In this document: positions 8,748 to 35,515 of the stretch, in pieces
Layout: each line of letters opens with the position of its first letter
How positions within the stretch are numbered: the stretch's first letter is position 1
Source: Helicobacteraceae bacterium
Lineage (GTDB): Bacteria; Campylobacterota; Campylobacteria; Campylobacterales; Sulfurimonadaceae
Assembly (NCBI GenBank): GCA_027084065.1
Contig: JALWLR010000269.1
Span: 1-35,597 of the forward strand
Direction of reading: 5' to 3'
Length of the DNA: 35,597 nt
Program-made: the position numbers and the translations under genes
The notes under the pieces: model-generated
The model's database searches: none
What the model was told of the DNA's origin: nothing
The model's input: only the letters and a program-made list of their open reading frames with translations

Positions 8748-9422
8748 CTAATGCTGCGGTCTGTTTGGCGAAAAATTGACCTCTTTAAAGGCATCTATCG
8801 TTTCATGCGATCTTTTTTGGCGTAATTTTTTCATTACATTTACAGGAATATCGTGAACAAATTTCTCTTCTTTGATAATTTTTCCTTTTTTATCATACCA
8901 CCGCTGTTTTCCTTCTTTATAGTTATTCTGATAAAGCACATCACTATAGAGGTGGCCTTCGTATGTATACTCTTTTTGTACTCCCTCTTTTTTTCCTTTT
9001 TTATACGGTACGCTCAAAGCCAATTTTCCATTATCGTAAAATTCTTTGTAAATTCCCTCTCGTTTATCATTTTTATAAAACTGTTTTGCTTTTACTTTTC
9101 CGTTTGGAAAAAATGTTATCTCCCATCCTTCCAGCTCTCCATTCTTATAGTGAAGAACCTTGAGCTTGTTCCCCTCTTTATCCCACCATCTCATTTCGCC
9201 GTCACGCTTATTATTGACATAATTTACTCTATAAGCAACACTTCCTTCCATATAATAAACCTTTTGCTCTCCATGCCTGATGCCTTTGCTCGTTTTTGTT
9301 CTTGTTCCATCTATATAATGTGTCTCCGATTTTAAAGCGCCGTTGGAAAAATACTCTTTGACAAGCTCTCCAAACAACGATGAAGATGTAAAAAGCAAAA
9401 TTAAAAGAAGTGTTTGTCTCAT
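8748..9422 (-). CDS. Secreted MORN-repeat-variant (YwqK-like) protein
   Basis: Repeated G..K.E..Y.NGK / Y..G...G motifs. Start moved to M22 (MRQTLLLILLFTSSSLFG is a signal peptide). The longer ORF would run through the upstream terminator hairpin. Confidence 0.7.
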   Translation of the reverse strand: MRQTLLLILLFTSSSLFGELVKEYFSNGALKSETHYIDGTRTKTSKGIRHGEQKVYYMEGSVAYRVNYVNNKRDGEMRWWDKEGNKLKVLHYKNGELEGWEITFFPNGKVKAKQFYKNDKREGIYKEFYDNGKLALSVPYKKGKKEGVQKEYTYEGHLYSDVLYQNNYKEGKQRWYDKKGKIIKEEKFVHDIPVNVMKKLRQKRSHETIDAFKEVNFSPNRPQH

Positions 9423-9458
9423 TGTGTACAACCTTTGTTTTTTTCTTTTAGCAATCTT

Positions 9459-9504
9459 TAAAAAAAACTCCGAAAAGAAAAACACACTCCTGCATGCAGG
9501 AGTG
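9459..9504 (-). terminator. Rho-independent terminator downstream of the cytochrome gene
   Basis: 20-nt perfect palindrome CACTCCTGCATGCAGGAGTG (9485-9504), giving an 8-bp stem and CATG loop. On the minus strand it is followed by TGTTTTTCTTTTCGGAGTTTTTTTT. It starts 8 nt after the stop at 9512. Confidence 0.75.
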
Positions 9505-9511
9505 ATTTATG

Positions 9512-11893
9512 TTACTTCCAGCCTTTTTTTACAACTGTAGAAGCTTTTTTGTATGGGAACTTTTCTACAAGCTCTTTGACACTGAGTTTTTGATCACCCT
9601 CTCTCATGAAGTGTGCAAGCGTAACCGCTGCCCAGTAGTCATTTGCATATTTTGTTCCATTTAATTGAATAGGAACACCGTTTTTGTTTACTGTATGACA
9701 TGCCGCACAGGTTACAGGACCACTATATTTTCCATCTGGTGAATACTGCAATGCTTGTTCATGTGTCGTTACATCAACACTTCTCTCTTTTCCATCATAA
9801 CGTGTAGAGTACAAACCATGTGTCGATTCATGACAAGACTGACATGCAATATTGCCATGAGCTTTTGAATATCTATAAAGTGAATATTTATTCGGCAAAT
9901 CGATAGGGAAATACTTTCCACCGGTTTCTTGTTCTACAAACGGTGCTATATGACAATCGGCACAATGAGGTTCACTTGCCGAAAGCCACCAGTCATTACC
10001 GCCAGAAGCTGCTGAATACGGAACTTTTCCACCTTTTGGATGATTCCAAGGTTTCAAATCTAACTTTCCGTCTTTACCGACATTTTTCACAAGAGTGGCA
10101 GAAGTATGCTCACTATAATATTTTAACACTTCATTATCACCTGTTACTTTTGGATCTGCCAAAGAAGCAAATTTCTTTTCATCTCCACCTGCAACAGCTT
10201 GAATAATCTCTTTAATAGATTTATTTCTCAGTGTTCTACCCTCTTGTGTACTATCATGCTTTATATCATCATAATTCTGGAATGCCTGAGCGACTTTTGT
10301 ATGACAGTTTGTACAATAAAGACCTCGAAGCTTTTTGACTGTTTTTCCATGTTCATCTTTCATAGAGACATTTTTAAGCTGCCATTTTCCATACTCGTTA
10401 AGGAAGAAAGGCGGTTTTGCATCCGGGTTGGAGTGGGCATCACGTCTTACATAACAACCTCCTCCGGATTTTCTTATATCTCCCGTTGAAAATCTTCCTT
10501 CTCCATAGCGTGTTGTAACTCTGTATGGATTGGAGTCATCGTTCATATTAGGATTTTGGAAGTGTGTCGGGTGACATGACTGACACGCTTGACTTCTACC
10601 CGCGCCGTCAGGCATAGGAACAATTCCAAGGTGAAAAGAGTGGATAGCTTCTGAAAGAGGCTGTGCTTTTACCGTTTTATAACCAGTAGCTGTTGGACGT
10701 GGCTCCTGAAGGTTTCCGCTGACATTGTCTCCATGGCAATCAGCACAGTTGACCATCCCCACTTTTCCTAAACGGTTCCCTGAAGCTTTAGGATTGTAAT
10801 CGCTTAAAAACGTTGTTCCGTGATGTGAATCATGTAAAGAGAGAATATTGATACTTGCTTCTGCAAGTCTTGCCATATATTCACTCTCATCCGGATAACT
10901 TTTCCAGTAGTTGTATTCCTGATCACTAAATTTCAACCCCTCATCACGTGCCATTTGTGCAGCTTTTCCGTTTCTTGAGTGGCATGCGTAACAGTTTGGA
11001 ATATCGACCGGGTTTGTTCCAAAGTAGGAAAATGCATGTCCATCCTTAGCACGCAGCGCTTTTCCAGTTCTGTCATGAATCTCTACAGTCGAGTACTGAA
11101 ACGGCTGAAAATCTTTTTGCGTAACACTTCGAATAGTTCCCCTTCTCGTACTATCGTTAAATGCCGTTAGCGGTAATCCAAGAGCATCCCACACGTGAGA
11201 AGCCGTCAGTTTCAGCTTGACGTTTTTAACGGCAGGAACGAGTGTATCGGTCATTACGATATTACCGCCCTCTTTTCCAGCATACTCCAAATAACCACCC
11301 GAAAGTGGCTTCCCACTTGGACCTGCATCAATATTTACCGGGACTTGTAATCCTATGCGGAGTCTGTCTTTGTCTGTTGCACCAGAAGGAATTGTTCCTT
11401 CGAGATCTTTATATATAAAAAGGTGTGTCCAAACGTAGTTAGCGACATTGTCTCCAGCAGAGTCTAGGTGCCCGTCCATGTCAGCATCTTTACGTACCGA
11501 CCAGTATTTCATTTTGTTTCCTTCACTGTATGTATTGTCTTTAACATAGTAGTAAAGTTTTACATCATCATCAGGAGAGAGCAGTTTTGGTAGCTTGCCA
11601 TCTCCACCAGAACGTATAGCCTGTGCCTGAATGGAGTTGTAAGGAGGAATCACACAACAATAGTCCATAGAGAACCCGACACAGTGCATGCCAAGTTCAT
11701 AGTTAACAAATACATTGTACTTGTTTACAGGCTCATATCCTGTAACCTTGTTTCCGTTTTCATCTTCTCCGATAAACTTTTTGAGTTTATCTAAACCAAA
11801 CGGAGGATGCGTGTCATACGCTGAAGCAGAAGAAACGCTCAAAGAGAGCATCGCAATAGCTGCAGCCGTTGAAGCGATTATTTTTCGTTTCAT
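9512..11893 (-). CDS. Secreted multiheme c-type cytochrome: seven CXXCH motifs and a ~275-aa heme-free N-terminal domain
   Basis: AAGGAA SD precedes the start; signal peptide ends ...SASA/YD. CXXCH motifs begin at residues 301 (CYACH), 383 (CADCH), 437 (CQSCH), 527 (CTNCH), 644 (CADCH), 684 (CQSCH) and 729 (CAACH). Extra Cys at 71, 79, 80 and 480. Subfamily not recognised. Confidence 0.9.
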   Translation of the reverse strand: MKRKIIASTAAAIAMLSLSVSSASAYDTHPPFGLDKLKKFIGEDENGNKVTGYEPVNKYNVFVNYELGMHCVGFSMDYCCVIPPYNSIQAQAIRSGGDGKLPKLLSPDDDVKLYYYVKDNTYSEGNKMKYWSVRKDADMDGHLDSAGDNVANYVWTHLFIYKDLEGTIPSGATDKDRLRIGLQVPVNIDAGPSGKPLSGGYLEYAGKEGGNIVMTDTLVPAVKNVKLKLTASHVWDALGLPLTAFNDSTRRGTIRSVTQKDFQPFQYSTVEIHDRTGKALRAKDGHAFSYFGTNPVDIPNCYACHSRNGKAAQMARDEGLKFSDQEYNYWKSYPDESEYMARLAEASINILSLHDSHHGTTFLSDYNPKASGNRLGKVGMVNCADCHGDNVSGNLQEPRPTATGYKTVKAQPLSEAIHSFHLGIVPMPDGAGRSQACQSCHPTHFQNPNMNDDSNPYRVTTRYGEGRFSTGDIRKSGGGCYVRRDAHSNPDAKPPFFLNEYGKWQLKNVSMKDEHGKTVKKLRGLYCTNCHTKVAQAFQNYDDIKHDSTQEGRTLRNKSIKEIIQAVAGGDEKKFASLADPKVTGDNEVLKYYSEHTSATLVKNVGKDGKLDLKPWNHPKGGKVPYSAASGGNDWWLSASEPHCADCHIAPFVEQETGGKYFPIDLPNKYSLYRYSKAHGNIACQSCHESTHGLYSTRYDGKERSVDVTTHEQALQYSPDGKYSGPVTCAACHTVNKNGVPIQLNGTKYANDYWAAVTLAHFMREGDQKLSVKELVEKFPYKKASTVVKKGWK

Positions 11894-12191
11894 TTCGTTT
11901 CCTTTTTTAGTTTTTCACTCTTAGTATTACATTTTCTAATTTAAACGAAATTGAAAAAGTATAAAAAAGATTTATTTTCTGTAAACTATTGTTACATTTA
12001 TTTGTTTTGTGATGTTTTTGTTATTTGCACCTAATTTCTTTACTATTATGGAGTTTATACATTAAAAATAGTAATATCATACAAGATAATATAAAGTATA
12101 AAAATGATTGATTTATCTTTGTTTTTTTATAATCTCAAATAAAAAGAACAGCACATGCAAAAACGTTTACAACTAGATTATGGAAAAAGTG

Positions 12192-12197
12192 TATAAT
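12192..12197 (+). promoter_or_regulatory. -10 hexamer TATAAT only 7 nt upstream of the acpS ATG (possible leaderless transcript)
   Basis: GTGTATAATTTCTTTCATG: TATAAT at 12192-12197, ATG at 12205, and no SD in between. Confidence 0.3.
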
Positions 12198-12204
12198 TTC
12201 TTTC

Positions 12205-12582
12205 ATGATAGGAATAGATATAGTAGCAATAGATCGCATCCAGGCAATGATGAGTCGTTTTGGGGACAAAGCTTTAAAACGATTTTTAACACAAGAAGAG
12301 ATAACTTTAGTAAAAAAGGTTGAAACCGCTGCAGGTTTTTGGGCTATAAAAGAGGCTGCCTCCAAAGCGCTTGGATGTGGCATTGGAAAGGAACTCTCTT
12401 TTTTAGATATGCAAATAGAAAAAAATGAGAGAAACGCTCCATCACTTCGATTGAAAAAATCGATTATAGAAAAATTTAACATCCGCAGTGTCGAACTATC
12501 AGTGACTCATGACAGTAACTTTGCCGTTGCCGTTGTTCGATTTGAAAGCAATCGATCCGCAGATATGATTAAGGAGTTTTAA
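12205..12582 (+). CDS. acpS: Holo-[acyl-carrier-protein] synthase
   Basis: MIGIDIVAIDRI N-terminus, WAIKEAASKALG, and SVTHDSNFAVAVV. Confidence 0.9.
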   Translation: MIGIDIVAIDRIQAMMSRFGDKALKRFLTQEEITLVKKVETAAGFWAIKEAASKALGCGIGKELSFLDMQIEKNERNAPSLRLKKSIIEKFNIRSVELSVTHDSNFAVAVVRFESNRSADMIKEF

Positions 12583-13838
12583 TGCAGCCAGTCTCGGTTT
12601 CTACTTTAACAAATCAAATCAAATCCCTTCTAGAAACAAGTTTCAATCGTATTGTGGTAGAAGGAGAGCTCTCACGAATTACCTACCATAACTCCGGACA
12701 CATATATTTTACACTCAAAGATGAAAATGCGACAATCCGTGCCGTAATGTTTAGAGGCAACGCTGCAAAACTTCGCTTTCGACTAGAAGAAGGGCTAAAA
12801 GTGATTATCGATGCGGCAATAACCCTTTATACACCCCGAGGAGAGTATCAGCTCAACTGTTTTAGCATCGAGCCCTCAGGTCAAGGCGCCCTTGCTTACG
12901 CATTTGAGCAGCTTAAAAACAAACTGTTGCAAAAAGGCTACTTCGAGCAGTCACGAAAAAAACCGCTACCCAAGTTTCCAAAAAAAATCGCTCTTATCAC
13001 GTCAGCCACCGGTGCCGCACTGCAAGATATGCTTCGCATTGCAAACAGCCGGTATCCTTTATGTGAAATAGATATCTACGATGTTCTCGTACAAGGTGAA
13101 AATGCGGCAAACTCCATAGCTTCAGCACTCACATATGCCGACTCACTACAGATTTACGATGCAATCGTCATAGGACGCGGAGGCGGCAGTATAGAAGATT
13201 TGTGGGCATTTAACGAAGAGGTTCTCGCAGATGCCATTTATAAAGCAAAAACACCCGTTGTTTCTGCAGTCGGGCATGAAATAGATACTGTTATCAGCGA
13301 CTTTGTAGCAGATGTACGCGCCGCTACTCCAAGTAATGCAATAGAGCTACTTTTACCGGATAAAACGGAGTTAATGCTTTATTTGGACTCATTAATGGAA
13401 CAGCTCCAAAGACGAACCATGCACATAGTAACACTCAAGCAGCAAGAACTTCAACACATGCAAGAGGCATTTAAACAGCACTCATTTGAAAAGAAAATAG
13501 CGCAGCAAGAGGAAGGTATCATACAACTACGCCAGCGGTTCGAACAATCCGTTGCATTTGTATTTTCTCGTTTTACAGAATCTTTACACTACATGCAAAA
13601 AGAGCTGCCGCGAAACATTCATAATGTTTTAGAGCGAAAAAATGCTCAACTCTCCTCACTCAATGAAGCATTTAGTGCCTCCAATCCAAAACTCAAATCC
13701 AAAAAAGGCTTTGCACAAATTGTTCGAGATGGAAAAATTATCGATTTGGCATCTCTTGAACCAAATCAAGAGTTTGAAGCACAAACTTCCGATATAATAG
13801 TCACTGCAAAAGTTTTAGATAAAAGGAATATTTTATGA
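12582..13838 (+). CDS. xseA: Exodeoxyribonuclease VII large subunit
   Basis: VEGELSRITYHNSGHIYFTLKDENATIRAVMF (OB fold) and ITSATGAALQDMLRI. TAATG overlap with acpS. Confidence 0.95.
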   Translation: MQPVSVSTLTNQIKSLLETSFNRIVVEGELSRITYHNSGHIYFTLKDENATIRAVMFRGNAAKLRFRLEEGLKVIIDAAITLYTPRGEYQLNCFSIEPSGQGALAYAFEQLKNKLLQKGYFEQSRKKPLPKFPKKIALITSATGAALQDMLRIANSRYPLCEIDIYDVLVQGENAANSIASALTYADSLQIYDAIVIGRGGGSIEDLWAFNEEVLADAIYKAKTPVVSAVGHEIDTVISDFVADVRAATPSNAIELLLPDKTELMLYLDSLMEQLQRRTMHIVTLKQQELQHMQEAFKQHSFEKKIAQQEEGIIQLRQRFEQSVAFVFSRFTESLHYMQKELPRNIHNVLERKNAQLSSLNEAFSASNPKLKSKKGFAQIVRDGKIIDLASLEPNQEFEAQTSDIIVTAKVLDKRNIL

Positions 13839-14443
13839 ACTATCCATCGTTTTTCAACAGTATTGAACCCATCTCTTTAGAAGATCCGCTTGCCGATATA
13901 CTCGGTGCCTTTGAAGAGGGACGTTATAGCATAAGCTATGTGGAAGTGGTTAAAGGTGCGGGGCACAGCTGTCCTACAGTTGCCGGTGCTTATTTGATGA
14001 CTCAATATGCACTTAAAGCTCTCTACCCCAATGAACCGGCTATTCGTGGAGATATTGAAGTCTTTTTCAAAGAGCAGCTGCAAGAGGGAGTAGCAGGAGT
14101 TATTGGCAATGTCGTCTCCTACATTACCGGTGCAACGGATCAAAGTGGTTTTAAAGGTCTTGGAGGCAAATTCGCACGCCACTCTTTAATGCACTTCGAA
14201 AGTGAGATCGGCTCTGCTAGTGCACGTTTTAGCTCTTGCTCAAATAACAAAAGCGTAGATGTTTTTTACGATCCATCATCTATCAAACCTCATCCCGACA
14301 TGCAGCCTTTAATGCAGCTTATTATGCAAAATAAAGCTACTCCGGAACAAAAACGACAATTTGGCCTACTTTGGCAGGAGCGTGTTAAGAACATCTTCGC
14401 CCATGCCGATGAAGTCATTCGTCTTCAGCCGGTAAACAGCTAA
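13835..14443 (+). CDS. Conserved hypothetical protein, possibly FmdE-like fold
   Basis: ATGA overlap with xseA. GAGHSCPTVAGAYLM resembles the FmdE-family H-x-C-P-G motif. No other recognisable motifs. Confidence 0.5.
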   Translation: MNYPSFFNSIEPISLEDPLADILGAFEEGRYSISYVEVVKGAGHSCPTVAGAYLMTQYALKALYPNEPAIRGDIEVFFKEQLQEGVAGVIGNVVSYITGATDQSGFKGLGGKFARHSLMHFESEIGSASARFSSCSNNKSVDVFYDPSSIKPHPDMQPLMQLIMQNKATPEQKRQFGLLWQERVKNIFAHADEVIRLQPVNS

Positions 14444-28167: not shown

Positions 28168-30168
28168 TTAGCGAGTTTTGAAAGTGTTGAGCTGAGTTTG
28201 CAGCTGGCGTGCCTTTTGATTGAGCTCCATCGCTGAAGTGACGATATACTCTACATGACGAGTGTTTTCCGCTGAAAGGTCATTGATGTTTCGTATTTGC
28301 GAGACAATGGCATCGACATTCTCTCCCGTTTGCTCAAAACTTTGGATCGTCTTTTCATTTATGCCTACAGCTACATTGACAATCTGCACACTCTCTTTTA
28401 TTTTCTTCTCGACATTTACTGAAAGTTCAGAGAGCTGTTGGATTTCACTTGAGTTTTGACTCATTGTACCCGATGCATCTACAATGGACTGCACAATGAC
28501 ATTGATGGTGGAGTTGATTTCAACAAGGGACTTTTGCGTTCTCTCTGCAAGCTTTCGAACCTCATCAGCGACAACGGCAAAACCTCTACCGTGCTCGCCT
28601 GCACGGGCGGCTTCGATTGCGGCGTTCAAAGCAAGAAGGTTTGTCTGATCGGCAATGTCGGCAATGACATTGAGCACCTCTTTAACCTGTGTCGCTTCGC
28701 TTGAGAGTGTTTGCATCTTTTGTGAAAGTTCCGCTTCAAGTTCGGCACTGTGCTGTACCTCTTGCGCTAGCTTAATAACATCACCGCTTGCTTCATCGAG
28801 TATCTCTTTTGCTTTGAGTACATCCTCTTTCGATGTCGTCGCTTCTGCAACAGAAGCATCAATGTTGAGTTTGATCTCGTTTGCCTGCTTGACGGCATCG
28901 TTAATAATCTCTGTTGAGTGTTCGACACTTTTACCTACATCTTCTGCAGCATCGGCAAGATTGTCGGCGATTTGAAGATTCTCTTGTGAGGAGCTTTTTG
29001 CTTCTCGAACAAGCAGCTCGAAATTGTCTATGAGTTCGTTGAGATTACGAACAATCTCTCCTAGTTCATCTTTTGTCTCGACATCACTTCTAAGCGTCAA
29101 ATCATTTGTAGAAGAGAGCTTTTTCATAAATCTACTCAACGCTTCTACAACCTCAGAAACACTCTTTTGTACAAAATAGCCTATGATGATGACAAAAATT
29201 ATAATGATGATATTAATAGCAAGCAATTTTACAAGTGAGTTGTTTGACTCTTCAATAGAAGCCTCAATCATTTCATTCAAATTTTGCGTTATTTGATTTT
29301 CGATCTCTTTTAAACCGTTGATATATTCTGTTGCCACATCGAAGAAACTATTTGCTTCATAAACAAAATCTTCACTTTGTTTCGCTTTGAGTATAGATGC
29401 AAGCATTGTCTCGAGTTTATGTGTGGATTCCCTATTTTGTAGCGCTGCAAACGCTTTTAAAACGCTTGAATCGGCAAATGTTTTGAAATCTTTAAAGTAA
29501 GCTTTTTGCTGTGCGACCAATGAAGCGAGTTTGACCTTCTCTGCATCATTTATAGCTTTACATGCACAAGCACCGCTTCCACCTGCACGAATCAAGCCCG
29601 CTTTCTCTTTTGCTCGTAAAAAGGAGACAAATGCCCCACTCTCTCTGACCAAATCGTCATCTTGCAATACACGAACAATCTCCCCAATATCATCGATAAG
29701 GCTTGTATTGATTTTCGTATAGAACATAACTGCCGTTTTTTTATCTACTGCTAATTTCTCTATACGTTCACGCATTCCCTCCAAAGAAGAAAGGATTTGC
29801 ATGTCCTTTTTTATCTCTTCTAAGAAAGTAAGTGTATCATCCTCTGAAAACTCTACATTTTGCAAATAGGTTTGCAGCTTTTTCAAAGCTTCATTTGAGC
29901 TTCTTTTTTGCATTGCTAGTCTATTTTTGAACTTTTGCCCCATAGAGCTAAGATACCCGGCACTCATACCTCGCTCTTTTTGCAGCTCATGCACTAAAGC
30001 GGATACTCGAACAGCCACACCTATATATGTACGCTCTTTTTTAGCTTGCTTGAGTTCTGTGTACTCTTTGTAACTGTCCATCCCTACCTGATAGGAAAGT
30101 GCCAATGTCGCAATGATGACAAGAAGACTCAGCTTCAGTTTTATGCTCATGTCGGAAAGAAATTTCAC
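28168..30168 (-). CDS. Methyl-accepting chemotaxis protein with periplasmic NIT (nitrate/nitrite-sensing) domain, HAMP and MA domains
   Basis: The region between TM1 and TM2 contains [19 protein letters not shown] (NIT hallmark). HAMP follows TM2. The signalling hairpin reads [43 protein letters not shown] start with AAAGGG SD; the alternative ATG is at 30150. Confidence 0.92.
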
Positions 30169-32968: not shown

Positions 32969-34142
32969 TGAGAACCTCTTTGATTTTTGCATGTGCAGCA
33001 AGATTGGCTTTTGATTTCAAAGGCTGTCTTGGAAAGTAGGAGGCTTTAGCGCCATTTGGCAACAAAAGATAAAGATGCTCAGGACGATCGAAACTACCAA
33101 AAGAGAGCTTCAGTAAAAACTCATCTTCTGAAATTTTGTATACCCGCTCGAAATGAACGAAAAAATCCTCTTCTATAAACTTTTTTTTGTGAAGCTGCTT
33201 TACAAACGCTTCATCCACCTCAAACACTTCAAAATCGAAACTACCCTCTATGCTAAGAGGTGGGCTGAGAGTATCGTTGATCATCGTCACATCATAAATA
33301 TTTTTCTGCATGCGCTTCCAACGATCTTCATACTTACTACTGATTGCTATCTCTTTATTTTTTTTGATCTCAAGATCGATTTTTGGAAAACTCATAAAAG
33401 TTTCATACGAGTAGGCATAATAGTTTTCACTGTCTGTTCTAAGCTCCAGTCTGCCCCCTTTTTTCAAAACACGCATTGACTCTTCGACAAACGTTTTGGA
33501 TATAACGCGCCTGTGTGGCTTCTTATCCCAGGGAACTGGAAAATGGACATAGATTTTTCCTACGATGTTGGAGGGAACCTGCTCCAAAAACAGACGCGCA
33601 TCATAGTCAATAACAAAGATGTTTTTCAAACCCTTGATATTGATCTGCTTGAGTACCTGCTCGATGGAAGGGCGGTGTATCTCCAAGCCTATAAATAAAA
33701 TGTCAGGGTTGTGTTCCGCCTGATAAAGCAGATGCCGCCCTGAACCAAAGCCCACCTCTATGTGTACCTCTTTATCCATTGGGAAAGAGGAGGCAAAAAA
33801 CTCTATCTCTTTGAGTGCCGGCGTCTTTTTAAGATGCGGATTATTCTTTTGTTCAGGAACATTGGAGTGTAGCACTTTCAAATTTGCCACTTTTGCATAG
33901 GCAGATAGCGCCCTGTGCAGTAAAAAAATGGATGCTGGACGTGTTGTTTTGTCACTTTTTAAGAGAACTTTGCCATGATCTTGCTTGAGAACCAAGAAAA
34001 ATTCATGCCCCTCCTCATCTTTTACCGCTATTAACTTTTCTCCCTCTACATGCAGGTTTGATGCCAAAAAACGAAACTGCAATCCCTCACTCTCTCTTGG
34101 GAGTGCTATCTCTTTGAATTTTTCTATAACTAAATGAGGCAT
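32961..34142 (-). CDS. trmB: tRNA (guanine46-N7)-methyltransferase with N- and C-terminal extensions (long epsilonproteobacterial form)
   Basis: Core motifs HIEVGFGSGRHLL, VHFPVPWDKKPHRRV, LRTDSENYY and SKYEDRWKRM span about residues 120-290 of 393. Confidence 0.88.
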   Translation of the reverse strand: MPHLVIEKFKEIALPRESEGLQFRFLASNLHVEGEKLIAVKDEEGHEFFLVLKQDHGKVLLKSDKTTRPASIFLLHRALSAYAKVANLKVLHSNVPEQKNNPHLKKTPALKEIEFFASSFPMDKEVHIEVGFGSGRHLLYQAEHNPDILFIGLEIHRPSIEQVLKQINIKGLKNIFVIDYDARLFLEQVPSNIVGKIYVHFPVPWDKKPHRRVISKTFVEESMRVLKKGGRLELRTDSENYYAYSYETFMSFPKIDLEIKKNKEIAISSKYEDRWKRMQKNIYDVTMINDTLSPPLSIEGSFDFEVFEVDEAFVKQLHKKKFIEEDFFVHFERVYKISEDEFLLKLSFGSFDRPEHLYLLLPNGAKASYFPRQPLKSKANLAAHAKIKEVLNG

Positions 34143-35515
34143 TATTCACTTTCCACGTTTAAATCATCCACCGGTGCTACCTCGGTTTTGGGTGTTTGAA
34201 GCGACTTTTTTGTCGTTTTTATCTCTTTAGCAGCGCTGTTGGTTTTTGGAAGCGCCATTCCACGTAACTCTTTGACTTCGATACTCACTTCCTTGGATGG
34301 CTCGGAGATTATACCGAATTTGTCCACTGCATAAACACGGTAACTATAGCGGGTGTTTGGAGTTATATTTGTGTCGGTAAACTCTCTTTTTTTTGTAGTG
34401 AACCTCTCTTTTTTTACATCGAACCACCCTGTTTTCGCATGACGTTCCACAATGTAACTGACACTTCTTGGATCTACTTTGAACCACTGTAAATGAATCG
34501 CTCTGCCGTCGAATTTTGTTTCAGAGAGTGTCGGTGCATCAGGCTTTGGCAGCGTCATGCCCATGGCAACATAACGATCCTTTTTCGACTCCAAACCATC
34601 TATGTCTTTTTGTGAAACTTTGTAGAAGTAGGTTGCTCCATCTTTCCCTATATTGTCAGTAAAACGGTTGTTGTATAACTTGGCGATAAGCTCATAATCT
34701 CCCTCTTTGCGTTTGGAGCGGTAAAGATAGTAACGCTCGAAATCTTTGTAGTTACTTTTATTCCATGTGATATAGATCTTTTTAGGAAGATTCGTCGTGG
34801 CATGCAGCCCCGTAATCTCCGGAGGAAGCGGCTTTGTCACGACGGTAACGATTTCACTTGGCGTAGAGAGTATTCCTTCAAATGTCTTAACGCGCACACG
34901 ATATTTATAAGTGTGCTTGTCTTTGAGTCCTTCATCGATATACTCCGCCTGCAGGCGTCCTCGTCGTTTGCCTATCTCTTGCCACTCTTTCTCTTCTATA
35001 CTTTTTCGCTCTATGATGTAGGATTTGACACTCTTATCACTATGTGGTCTCCACAAAAGTTTCGCCATACGTGGCAATCCGTTTCGTGCATATATCCATG
35101 AAACAGAAGGTAACGGTGGCTTGGAGTAAACGACAATCTTTTTACTTTTTGCCGAAACGACATCGTCGCGGTAGGTACGCAAAACATAAGTATACTTCGT
35201 GTCCGGCTGCACATCAAGGTCTACAAAATGTGTCGCGTATCTGTTTGAGAGGGTTGCAATGAGATAGGTCGCATTCGAATCTCCCTTGCTACGGTAGATT
35301 TTAATCCCCTCGACATTCAAGTCCGTTATAGGCTTCCACTCAAACGCTATTTCGGTCATATCGACAATTATACCGTTTTTCGTAAGTACAACAACCGGCA
35401 GCTTTTCATCTACCTTGTAATTTTGCCCTACCGGTGTGGGAATAGAGCCATTACAGCCGCTAAAGCTCAGCAGTATCGAACTTATGAGCAATATGCTCAG
35501 GTAAAATCGTTTCAT
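34142..35515 (-). CDS. Fibronectin type III repeat lipoprotein (FlpA-like)
   Basis: Lipobox LSFSGC. Four Fn3-like units, each with a W...Y.Y.V tyrosine-corner pattern (YTYVLRTY, YKYRVRVKT, YFYKVSQKD, YSYRVYAVD). The position upstream of trmB-ftsEX matches C. jejuni flpA as recalled. Confidence 0.8.
   Translation of the reverse strand: MKRFYLSILLISSILLSFSGCNGSIPTPVGQNYKVDEKLPVVVLTKNGIIVDMTEIAFEWKPITDLNVEGIKIYRSKGDSNATYLIATLSNRYATHFVDLDVQPDTKYTYVLRTYRDDVVSAKSKKIVVYSKPPLPSVSWIYARNGLPRMAKLLWRPHSDKSVKSYIIERKSIEEKEWQEIGKRRGRLQAEYIDEGLKDKHTYKYRVRVKTFEGILSTPSEIVTVVTKPLPPEITGLHATTNLPKKIYITWNKSNYKDFERYYLYRSKRKEGDYELIAKLYNNRFTDNIGKDGATYFYKVSQKDIDGLESKKDRYVAMGMTLPKPDAPTLSETKFDGRAIHLQWFKVDPRSVSYIVERHAKTGWFDVKKERFTTKKREFTDTNITPNTRYSYRVYAVDKFGIISEPSKEVSIEVKELRGMALPKTNSAAKEIKTTKKSLQTPKTEVAPVDDLNVESE

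Follow-up and report, generated by a model that had tools for sequence, protein, structure and literature searches.

A widespread, uncharacterised family of heptaheme c-type cytochromes with four additional conserved cysteines in Campylobacterota and Proteobacteria

Results

The cytochrome gene and its flanking elements

The window, i.e., the whole stretch of 35,597 nucleotides analysed here (contig JALWLR010000269.1 of a Helicobacteraceae bacterium), carries a gene for an exported heptaheme c-type cytochrome, followed by a gene for a secreted MORN_2-repeat protein (Table 1). An initial reading of the sequence alone, without database searches (the sequence-only reading), had proposed an open reading frame of 793 aa, a Sec signal peptide, a 311-bp AT-rich upstream region and a terminator. 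All of these were found again. The frame is in the ORF list on the minus strand, and its stop codon occupies positions 9512–9514. The N-terminus, MKRKIIASTAAAIAMLSLSVSSASA followed by YD after the cleavage site, looks by eye like a type I signal peptide without a lipobox Cys. Residues 1–40 are also Cys-free in 107 of the 120 close Campylobacterota homologues, and a lipobox is present in about half of the proteobacterial ones. The upstream region is far poorer in GC than the window (40.7%) and contains a TTTACA-16-TATACT promoter-like site at 11985–11958; the divergent acpS gene begins just beyond it, at 12205. The terminator scan identified the hairpin CACUCCUGCAUGCAGGAGUG with its U-run, and the terminator region (101 nt) has an RNA folding energy of −23.8 kcal/mol (z = −2.7).

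Table 1. Features of the heptaheme cytochrome locus (positions in the window; residues of the 793-aa protein).
Feature	Coordinates	Strand	Evidence or details
Heptaheme c-type cytochrome gene	9512..11893	-	ORF list, motif count, homologues, dN/dS
Signal peptide, residues 1–25	11819..11893	-	Read from translation; predicted cleavage after ASA
Heme-free beta-rich N-terminal domain, residues 26–298	11000..11818	-	AlphaFold model of the domain alone
Signature motif YELGMHCVGFSMDYCCVIPPYNS, residues 65–87 (M69, H70, C71, C79, C80)	11633..11701	-	Alignment
Seven-heme domain, residues 299–793	9515..10999	-	CXXCH count and alignment
Invariant loop, residues 472–489	10427..10480	-	D472, R474, G479, C480, R484, D485, H487 and N489 invariant in alignment
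Intrinsic terminator	9473..9504	-	8-bp GC-rich stem, 4-nt loop, U-run; 8 nt past the stop codon
Upstream region	11894..12204	-	311 bp, 20.9% GC; promoter-like site and AAGGA ribosome-binding site
Secreted MORN_2-repeat protein, 225 aa, Cys-free	8748..9425	-	Pfam MORN_2, E = 1e-25; 86 nt downstream of the cytochrome

Domain architecture

The seven CXXCH motifs start at residues 301, 383, 437, 527, 644, 684 and 729 and span residues 301–733, just as the sequence-only reading had placed them, while the motif count over the 793-aa protein gave no CXXCK and no CX3CH, CX4CH or CX11–17CH. Every heme-binding Cys and His is conserved across the aligned family members. The alignment further indicates nine conserved His residues available as distal ligands for the seven hemes; these could render all seven hemes bis-His, and therefore an open catalytic heme is not required. 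The single Cys previously noticed within GGGCYVRRDAH, C480, is the sole non-heme Cys of the heme domain and belongs to the invariant loop listed in Table 1.

The AlphaFold model of the N-terminal domain alone (pLDDT 80.9) consists mainly of strands. Its best Foldseek match in the PDB had E 0.14, with TM ≤0.24, and the Pfam and NCBIfam scans gave no match within residues 26–298. This is a new kind of beta-rich domain, for which Pfam and the PDB yielded no relative. It contains the motif YELGMHCVGFSMDYCCVIPPYNS, which had already been singled out in the heme-free part of the protein; the motif is invariant or nearly so among 106 diverse sequences and was the search pattern that retrieved at least 580 genomes. 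Together with C480, the three Cys residues at positions 71, 79 and 80 are the only non-heme cysteines of the window protein.

Comparison with known cytochrome families

The protein could not previously be matched to a family by eye, and neither sequence, nor profile, nor predicted-fold comparisons placed it in a characterised cytochrome family. Scans of Pfam and NCBIfam returned generic multiheme matches only. Cytochrome_C7 (PF14522) matches residues 642–734, i.e., hemes 5–7, with 32 bits, which is above the cutoff, and the small-cytochrome models (class I cytochrome c and c7) cover residues 642–766 only. The likeness to the triheme modules of cytochromes c7 and c3 is limited to about 90 of the 793 residues and is silent on function. 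As a whole-protein account, class I cytochrome c or c7 carriers were rejected, as residues 26–298 match nothing. Searches of the PDB with phmmer and hmmsearch gave no characterised family, with c7 chains matched weakly in the profile search. For the full-length AlphaFold model (pLDDT 75.5, pTM 0.82), the best Foldseek match in the PDB had E 0.17 and TM ~0.1, and neither AlphaFold model had a match below E = 0.1.

Several families were considered and rejected individually. Membership in the MccA family is contradicted by seven hemes instead of eight, the lack of CX15CH and the lack of PDB matches by phmmer, hmmsearch and Foldseek. The protein has no CXXCK, matches no NrfA family in Pfam or NCBIfam and has no PDB match that would make it an NrfA. 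The octaheme HAO, OTR and ONR proteins were dismissed by the count of seven hemes and the absence of a Pfam or NCBIfam match; HAO and OTR are also absent among the Foldseek matches listed (E ≤10). For TsdA and SoxAX, diheme class I cytochromes with a Cys axial ligand, there was no profile or PDB match. The full MtrC/OmcA/MtrF architecture does not fit a protein with seven hemes, one beta domain, no lipobox, no MtrA/MtrB-like neighbour and TM ~0.1.

Partial similarities to two of these families can nevertheless be noted. Like MtrC, OmcA and MtrF, the protein has a beta-rich domain followed by a multiheme domain with weak profile similarity across hemes 1–3 and a short Cys-X7-Cys element in the beta domain, and some family members are lipoproteins or have surface Ig-like domains. 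The PF22113 model (MtrC domains II/IV) scores 27.7 bits with the window protein and 35–39 bits with the distant members P0122, P0129 and P0141 (cutoff 30), and 18 of 20 proteobacterial members match it at E below 1e-4. The window protein stays under this cutoff. Its seven hemes and single beta-plus-heme unit contrast with the ten hemes and two such units of MtrC, OmcA and MtrF; further differences are a Foldseek probability of ≤0.15 with TM ~0.1–0.2, the lack of an MtrAB-type porin–cytochrome partner and the soluble form in Campylobacterota. With MccA, the protein shares a large periplasmic multiheme architecture, extra conserved Cys residues that could hold a metal and occurrence in Campylobacterota, and as in the mcc cluster a peptidyl-prolyl isomerase gene adjoins the family gene in Proteobacteria. 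In contrast to MccA, there are no MccC/MccD-type Fe–S or membrane partners, and an oxygen reductase is linked to some members of the family.

Distribution and conservation of the family

The search revealed 684 homologues, the top 120 of which are 75–100% identical to the window protein across most or all of their length. Clustering at 50% left 397 representatives. Full-length relatives were found in at least 580 species genomes, and the family is also represented on at least 450 metagenome stretches. The hosts identified by name include Sulfurimonas, Sulfurovum, Nitratifractor, Sulfuricurvum, Sedimenticola, Endothiovibrio, Thiodiazotropha, Gallionellaceae, Rhodocyclaceae, Methylomarinovum and Methylohalobius. 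Sulfur- and iron-oxidising Proteobacteria, methanotrophs (marine ones among them) and lineages of sulfur-oxidising symbionts are represented. Sulfurimonas and Sulfurovum are the dominant primary producers of hydrothermal vents, cold seeps and marine redoxclines, and the cytochrome is among their better-conserved large exported proteins, with 72–90% identity across the genera in the loci compared.

In these comparisons dN/dS is well below 0.1 (dN 0.12–0.22; dS ~1.8 or more, so that synonymous sites are saturated). The gene is not a chance ORF, because it is under strong purifying selection, and this selection together with hundreds of intact orthologues also rules out a degenerate or unexpressed pseudogene. 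No RNA-seq runs containing the window gene or its Sulfurimonas indica orthologue were found.

Across phyla, 176 positions are at least 97% invariant. The family signature, LGMHC[TV]GF...CCV[LI]PPYN, seven CXXCH in order and a G-G-C-x3-R-D-x-H-x-N loop, is present in 254 of the 257 aligned members, the window protein among them. Some members have additional parts: a class I cytochrome c domain is fused to the N-terminus of P0122 and to the C-terminus of P0128, and in distant members there are further heme modules as well as surface domains of the Big_9 or cadherin-like type.

Every source that names the protein calls it ‘hypothetical’. No description of the family was found in the literature on heptaheme or multiheme cytochromes of Sulfurimonas and Sulfurovum. 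The family is likewise not described in works on the Gallionellaceae pangenome, Tenderiales, Sideroxydans proteomes and the Sulfurovum indicum transcriptome, or in those on extracellular electron transfer in Methylobacter and on bacteria flocking around cable bacteria. It is a large, unnamed and uncharacterised family of heptaheme c-type cytochromes, and a profile model for it would relieve thousands of genes of ‘hypothetical’ or ‘cytochrome c3 family’ labels.

Cysteine and histidine residues outside the heme motifs

The sequence-only reading had drawn attention to four cysteines whose conservation deserved a check. C71, C79, C80 and C480 are all retained in 254 of the 257 family members. C480 alone is retained in 255 and is missing only where C71, C79, C80 and H157 are also missing. 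This is the case in two divergent members, P0127 and P0144 (just 38% identical to each other), which lack these five residues and the neighbouring invariant residues, despite retaining all seven CXXCH motifs. The joint absence, which is based on two sequences only, suggests that C71, C79, C80, H157 and C480 may constitute an extra site separable from the hemes, and makes a redox role exceeding plain heme wiring plausible. In the AlphaFold full-length model, confidence is low at residues 71–73 and 81–83, and both in this model and in that of the domain alone the Cys-bearing loops are low-confidence spots in an otherwise confident structure. In our view, this pattern is typical of a cofactor missing from the prediction, and such a cofactor may be bound here. 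The four extra cysteines could also form two structural disulfides.

Genomic neighbourhood in Campylobacterota

The gene had been described as an orphan without partner genes. This holds for the window insofar as it contains no quinol dehydrogenase, porin or heme lyase (CcsBA is absent), but not for the conserved MORN_2 neighbour and the proteobacterial operons. The MORN_2 protein of the window is 46–48% identical to the neighbours of the cytochrome in Sulfurovum mangrovi and Sulfurimonas sp. C5. In the 83 loci compared, 81 of which are from Campylobacterota, the one neighbour that is conserved is a MORN-repeat gene; it adjoins the cytochrome in 58, the window included, and all 73 copies share the cytochrome strand. 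It is located downstream of the cytochrome in Sulfurimonas and upstream in Sulfurovum. The terminator between the two genes argues against strict co-transcription. A CcsBA heme lyase gene was found near the cytochrome in 22 of the 83 loci. Genes for PPIase, thioredoxin-like protein, class I cytochrome c, NapC/NirT cytochrome and CuA oxidase are adjacent neither in the window nor in the Campylobacterota loci.

Proteobacterial operons

In Proteobacteria, the family genes are located in tight operons with genes for a SurA-like PPIase, a TlpA/ResA-like thioredoxin and a class I cytochrome c, to which either a NapC/NirT cytochrome or a CuA-type heme–copper oxygen reductase is added. These partners are known from orthologues about 43% identical to the window protein. 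Of the 85 proteobacterial-type loci, 41 have a gene for a mono- or diheme class I cytochrome c directly upstream, which in 39 of them shares the strand of the family gene. The PPIase gene is the immediate downstream neighbour in 67 loci, close to the number that leave space for it, and the TlpA/ResA-like gene is present in 42. The neighbouring diheme cytochrome was compared with the NCBIfam model ‘PdsA’ and does not belong to it (73 bits, cutoff 330).

The order COX2(CuA)–COX1–diheme c–CYT–PPIase, where CYT is the family gene, was observed in 23 loci with overlapping or 4-nt junctions. We take the oxidase to resemble the B family, judging by HPIVY and a short subunit II of ~176 aa, presumably as in Thermus ba3. 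The neighbouring COX1 retains HPIVY, HH and GHFH, and COX2 retains the full CuA motif. The active-site Tyr marks oxygen reductases and is absent from NO reductases derived from heme–copper oxidases (PMC11214002). The tyrosine of H-x3-Y is kept here, which rules out an NO reductase. In 13 loci, as well as in one Gallionellaceae MAG, a NapC/NirT tetraheme gene is located between the diheme gene and CYT. Genes related to metals occur at some loci: L161, L162 and L164 have a gene for a P1B-type ATPase (CPC motif) between the diheme gene and CYT, Czc/Cus-like RND efflux genes adjoin the operon in L152, L156, L157, L159, L168 and L169, and metal transporters of the Zip and ABC-3 types are encoded nearby in L169.

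Discussion

Proposed role

We propose, with a probability of only about 0.4, that the window protein is the soluble periplasmic, substrate-facing and electron-donating end of a short respiratory branch, and that it has a non-heme Cys/His site. The earlier suggestion of a periplasmic or surface redox enzyme is borne out as far as export is concerned; a redox role beyond wiring is plausible, given the joint absence of the extra residues in two members with complete hemes. A reduced periplasmic substrate would give its electrons at the site made of M69/H70/C71, C79/C80, H157 and the C480 loop; this site could consist of a metal ion, e.g., Cu(I), or of reactive thiols. From there, the electrons would be conducted by the seven hemes to c-type cytochromes of class I and, in a Sulfurimonas-like host, might end at its own terminal oxidase or denitrification enzymes. 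Reduced sulfur compounds are the first-guess substrate because of the organisms carrying the gene. The class I cytochrome c neighbours and fusions probably reflect wiring to cytochrome c, and the CuA oxidase would be the electron sink. The SurA-like PPIase and the TlpA/ResA-like thiol reductase, apparently dedicated maturation proteins, would fold the cytochrome and keep its cysteines reduced; the adjacent MORN-repeat protein may be a periplasmic partner or scaffold that fills their slot in Campylobacterota.

A bolder form of this proposal is possible but doubtful: a previously unrecognised enzyme class, a heptaheme dehydrogenase whose new Cys/His active site (possibly copper or persulfide-forming) is set on a beta domain of new fold. 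Its substrate would be a reduced inorganic compound, with a sulfur species as the most plausible one, and it would pass the electrons via a c4-like cytochrome to the dedicated B-type oxidase, or via NapC/NirT to the quinone pool. If a sulfur, metal or nitrogen compound is oxidised, models of chemolithotrophic electron flow in the host groups miss an entry point, and if the dehydrogenase reading is true, this is a missing piece of energy metabolism in Sulfurimonas and Sulfurovum, sulfur-oxidising symbionts, Gallionellaceae and some methanotrophs. Even as a mere carrier, the protein would define a cytochrome family and a domain fold that are both new.

Alternative explanations

It is rather unlikely that the protein is a non-catalytic carrier or conduit, in effect half of an MtrC, with a beta domain and heme chain that shuttle or store electrons between the cytochrome c pool and donors or acceptors at the outer membrane or outside the cell. 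In that case, the extra cysteines would be engaged in disulfides with a regulatory or structural function, as with the CX8C disulfide of MtrC and OmcA, whose spacing C71-X7-C79 presumably resembles. The weak matches to MtrC/MtrF domains II/IV recur across members, OmcA and MtrC are among the insignificant top Foldseek matches, surface-type domains and further heme modules are found in distant members, roughly every second proteobacterial member is a predicted lipoprotein, and the conserved His residues suffice to bis-His ligate every heme. However, Pfam cross-matches driven by CXXCH are common between multiheme families, there is no conserved adjacent porin or MtrA/MtrB-type partner, and the Campylobacterota form is soluble, with predicted cleavage by signal peptidase I. 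The 176 near-invariant positions, including the polar R/D/H/N loop at C480, are in our judgement also more than a wire usually needs.

Electrons might instead flow in the opposite direction. A terminal reductase would take them from the quinol pool (via NapC/NirT where present) or from cytochrome c and use them at a heme/Cys site to reduce an acceptor in the periplasm (for instance, a sulfur oxyanion, polysulfide, NO, hydroxylamine or peroxide), as in NrfHA, MccA and OTR. NapC/NirT proteins usually serve periplasmic reductases as quinol dehydrogenases, and such a gene lies directly upstream in the 13 loci and in L085; this neighbour fits a quinol-fed reductase equally well as the proposed donor. 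A pocket for anions would be consistent with the invariant residues R474, R484, D485 and H487 near C480, and a PPIase gene presumably adjoins mccA in Wolinella as well. We consider this explanation unlikely, since 23 loci contain in the same tight operon a CuA-type oxygen reductase, itself an electron sink, and the protein has no CXXCK, no long CXnCH and no match to NrfA, HAO, OTR or MccA models or structures. Relatives of NapC/NirT, e.g., cM552, can also run towards quinone.

Finally, the protein could be an oxidoreductase that handles metals in the periplasm, for example, an oxidase of Cu(I) (or Fe(II)) that depends on its hemes. It would bind the metal at the Met/His/Cys site and transfer its electron to the respiratory chain, which would protect the cell or supply it with metal in habitats that are sulfidic and low in oxygen. 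Cu(I) is classically coordinated by Met, His and Cys, and the site has M69, H70, C71, C79, C80, H157 and C480. TlpA-type thioredoxins reduce the cysteines of Cu sites, which agrees with this function, as do the P1B-type ATPase, RND efflux, Zip and ABC-3 genes. Yet only a minority of loci, perhaps all of one lineage, have these metal genes, which could equally serve the CuA/CuB oxidase of the same operon, and none are near the cytochrome in Campylobacterota loci, which makes this explanation quite improbable.

Related electron-transfer modules

The proposed donor role has parallels in two known systems. The NapC/NirT-linked loci follow the same logic as the HAO–c554–cM552 module of ammonia oxidisers, in which a multiheme protein is combined with a small soluble cytochrome c and a NapC/NirT tetraheme membrane cytochrome. 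This similarity concerns the way the module would work and not its descent: the family has no HAO homology and possesses seven hemes and a separate beta domain, and most of its hosts oxidise sulfur, iron or methane instead of ammonia. The oxidase-linked loci differ from the rus operon of Acidithiobacillus (Cyc2–Cyc1–aa3 oxidase) in all of their proteins, with neither a Cyc2 porin–cytochrome nor rusticyanin; however, both combine a presumed substrate-side cytochrome with a diheme c4-like cytochrome and a dedicated CuA heme–copper oxidase.

Sequence Features and Conservation of the Heptaheme Cytochrome

The features described in the sequence-only reading were all found again, as checks of the ORF, heme motifs, extra cysteines, signal peptide, AT-rich upstream region and terminator hairpin agree. 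The seven CXXCH motifs lie at residues 301, 383, 437, 527, 644, 684 and 729, and a motif scan of the whole protein detected no CXXCK or extended CXnCH motifs. There are exactly four non-heme cysteines (71, 79, 80 and 480). The N-terminus, as read from the sequence, carries a signal-peptidase-I type signal (…SVSSASA, followed by YD) without a lipobox. The upstream region contains an AAGGA ribosome-binding site and one promoter-like site. A GC-rich hairpin with an 8-bp stem, followed by a U-run, starts 8 nt 3' of the stop codon.

A search of 5.8 billion proteins revealed 684 relatives. The best 120 show 75–100% identity along the full length or most of it, belong to Sulfurimonas, Sulfurovum and other Campylobacterales, bear only "hypothetical" or generic cytochrome names, and retain all 18 cysteines. 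Comparison with eleven orthologous loci gave dN of 0.12–0.22 versus pS of 0.69–0.83, with synonymous sites saturated. Degeneracy in relatives, which would have spoken against the sequence-only reading, was thus not seen, and this conservation indicates that the gene is functional.

HMMER, run exhaustively on 1.84 billion cluster representatives, yielded 397 relatives (69 with E ≤ 1e-30), a profile built from divergent members found 879 proteins, and a survey with one genome for each species confirmed at least 580. Named hosts of the profile-found proteins include Sedimenticola, Endothiovibrio, Thiodiazotropha, Chromatiales, Gallionellaceae and Rhodocyclaceae, a group about 43% identical to the window protein; an additional branch is found in Methylococcales, including Methylomarinovum caldicuralii and Methylohalobius. 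By these searches, the family is large and spans phyla. A lipobox occurs in roughly half of the proteobacterial members, and 107 of the 120 Campylobacterota members have no cysteine in the signal region. Fusions are seen in some distant members: P0122 and P0128 include class I cytochrome c domains, and P0141, P0143 and P0129 carry Big_9/cadherin-like surface domains together with extra heme modules.

Search for a Characterised Family

The window protein could not be assigned to a family by eye, and the database searches bear this out. Pfam gave generic multiheme matches only, with c7 and c554 on the last hemes, and nothing in NCBIfam came near any cutoff. Neither phmmer with the window protein nor a 106-sequence family profile matched any PDB chain. 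The full-length AlphaFold2 model, built on a diverse alignment (pLDDT 75.5, pTM 0.82), predicts a beta-rich domain at about residues 35–295, followed by a helix-and-loop heme domain. Foldseek against the PDB gave no match under E = 0.17 for this model and none for a model of the N-terminal domain only (pLDDT 80.9; best E 0.14, TM ≤ 0.24). The MtrC domain II/IV Pfam model scored 27.7 bits, under the cutoff of 30; a weak case can be made that part of the heme domain may be MtrC-like by ancestry. Membership in MccA, NrfA, HAO and OTR was excluded by motifs and lack of homology. The literature search revealed no paper on the family, and a search of RNA-seq runs for the window gene and its Sulfurimonas indica orthologue gave no matching run. 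The window protein genuinely belongs to a large family of uncharacterised multiheme cytochromes; it is strongly conserved, has a new N-terminal domain and merits experimental follow-up.

The Extra Cysteines

Among 257 family members spanning both regions, all four extra cysteines are present in 254, and one member has C80R. All four are missing in the remaining two, P0127 and P0144, which are just 38% identical to each other. In both, all seven CXXCH motifs are intact, as are the candidate distal histidines, but H157 and neighbouring invariant residues at 64–85 and 152–164 are gone as well. The extra cysteines thus seem to behave as one unit. Since the residues are missing jointly in these two sequences, and the low confidence of the AlphaFold models is concentrated in the cysteine-bearing loops, we infer a candidate discrete non-heme site where the two domains meet, which would be a metal centre or a set of reactive thiols. 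Possibly, the four cysteines form two structural disulfides instead.

Gene Neighbourhoods

We clustered the ORFs flanking the cytochrome gene in 83 loci, of which 81 are from Campylobacterota. The sole widely conserved neighbour is a MORN-repeat protein (58 of 83 loci), whose gene lies on the cytochrome's strand in all 73 copies, downstream in Sulfurimonas and upstream in Sulfurovum. In the window, its longest ORF (245 aa, GTG at 9485) runs over the terminator, so the ATG at 9425 is the likely start. The linkage is syntenic; the two genes need not share a transcript, because the terminator separates them. A fused CcsBA heme lyase is encoded nearby in 22 of the 83 loci and is absent from the window. 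The remaining flanks are unrelated housekeeping genes.

We also examined 85 loci of the proteobacterial type, with gene identities confirmed by Pfam and NCBIfam. The heptaheme gene is followed immediately by a SurA-N/parvulin PPIase gene in 67 of them, roughly the number of loci that extend far enough to show one. Forty-two (42) loci contain a TlpA/ResA-like thioredoxin gene, and 41 have a diheme class I cytochrome c gene directly upstream (same strand in 39). With the MORN neighbour and these tight operons, the cytochrome can no longer be called an orphan. In 13 loci and one Gallionellaceae MAG, a NapC/NirT tetraheme gene is located between the diheme and heptaheme genes. Methanotroph loci have the order monoheme cytochrome c, heptaheme, PPIase. 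A complete ccm operon in one genome (locus L087) echoes the CcsBA adjacency of Campylobacterota.

The order COX2-COX1-diheme c-heptaheme-PPIase was found in 23 loci; in locus L144 the junctions measure −4, −13 and +4 nt. In 20 of 23 copies, COX1 retains H-P-I-V-Y, HH and GHFH; COX2 retains the full CuA motif. The active-site tyrosine is kept in oxygen reductases and lacking in HCO-derived NO reductases (PMC11214002). The operon looks like a dedicated B-type oxidase module, which appears undescribed so far.

Metal-transport genes lie within or near the operon in some loci (table). Sulfur-trafficking or persulfide dioxygenase genes occur occasionally near the heptaheme gene.

Possible Function

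The most economical reading, with a probability of about 0.4, is that electrons would enter a short periplasmic chain through this protein, given the cytochrome c fusions and adjacency, the operon oxygen reductase and the NapC/NirT quinone link; this operon evidence comes from orthologues about 43% identical to the window protein. A substrate would give electrons to the Cys/His site, from which they would travel through the seven hemes to cytochrome c and on to an oxidase or quinone. The oxygen reductase would be dedicated to the chain in one operon type, and NapC/NirT would link it to quinone in another. The PPIase and thioredoxin-like protein would be maturation factors, and the MORN protein of Campylobacterota may be a partner or scaffold. 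Because the family occurs in bacteria that oxidise sulfur, iron or methane at oxic–anoxic interfaces, and given the occasional sulfur-related neighbours, a reduced sulfur compound is our first guess for the substrate. HAO–c554–cM552 and the rus operon are analogous to such a chain in logic, not in ancestry.

We consider a pure carrier rather unlikely, and a reductase seems somewhat less likely still. A metal oxidase is improbable; the Cu-ATPase and RND-efflux genes scattered among the neighbours keep it alive.

Location of the features in the window and in loci of other genomes and metagenomes
Feature	Location	Strand	Remarks
Heptaheme cytochrome gene	9512..11893	minus	ORF, 793 aa
Upstream region	311 bp, reaching divergent acpS		20.9% GC vs 40.7% in the window
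MORN_2-repeat protein gene	8748-9425	minus, same as cytochrome	86 nt downstream; secreted, 225 aa, no Cys
COX2(CuA)-COX1(HPIVY)-diheme c-heptaheme-PPIase	L144:4197-10851; L157:3989-10605; ~20 similar metagenome loci		Overlapping junctions
Complete ccmABCEFGHI operon	L087:1-6732	divergent	Adjoins heptaheme-PPIase-thioredoxin genes
P1B-type (CPC-motif) metal-transporting ATPase gene	L161:4347-6833; L162; L164		Between diheme c and heptaheme genes
Czc/Cus-like RND efflux genes (OEP, MFP, RND pump)	L157:11319-16298; L168:1-3149; L169:1580-7247		Adjoin the cytochrome operon in several Methylococcales-like loci; L169 also holds nearby Zip and ABC-3 metal transporter genes and a persulfide dioxygenase-rhodanese fusion gene
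Methyl-accepting chemotaxis protein	28168-30168	minus	NIT (nitrate/nitrite-sensing) domain
434-aa ORF	740-2044	plus	No Pfam match at E ≤ 1e-5
457-aa protein	34142-35515	minus	Weak fibronectin type III match; purple-acid-phosphatase N-terminal domain match below cutoff
FmdE-domain protein	13835-14443	plus	202 aa

Elsewhere in the window, the FmdE-domain gene shares 4 nt with the end of xseA and is an odd partner for exonuclease VII.
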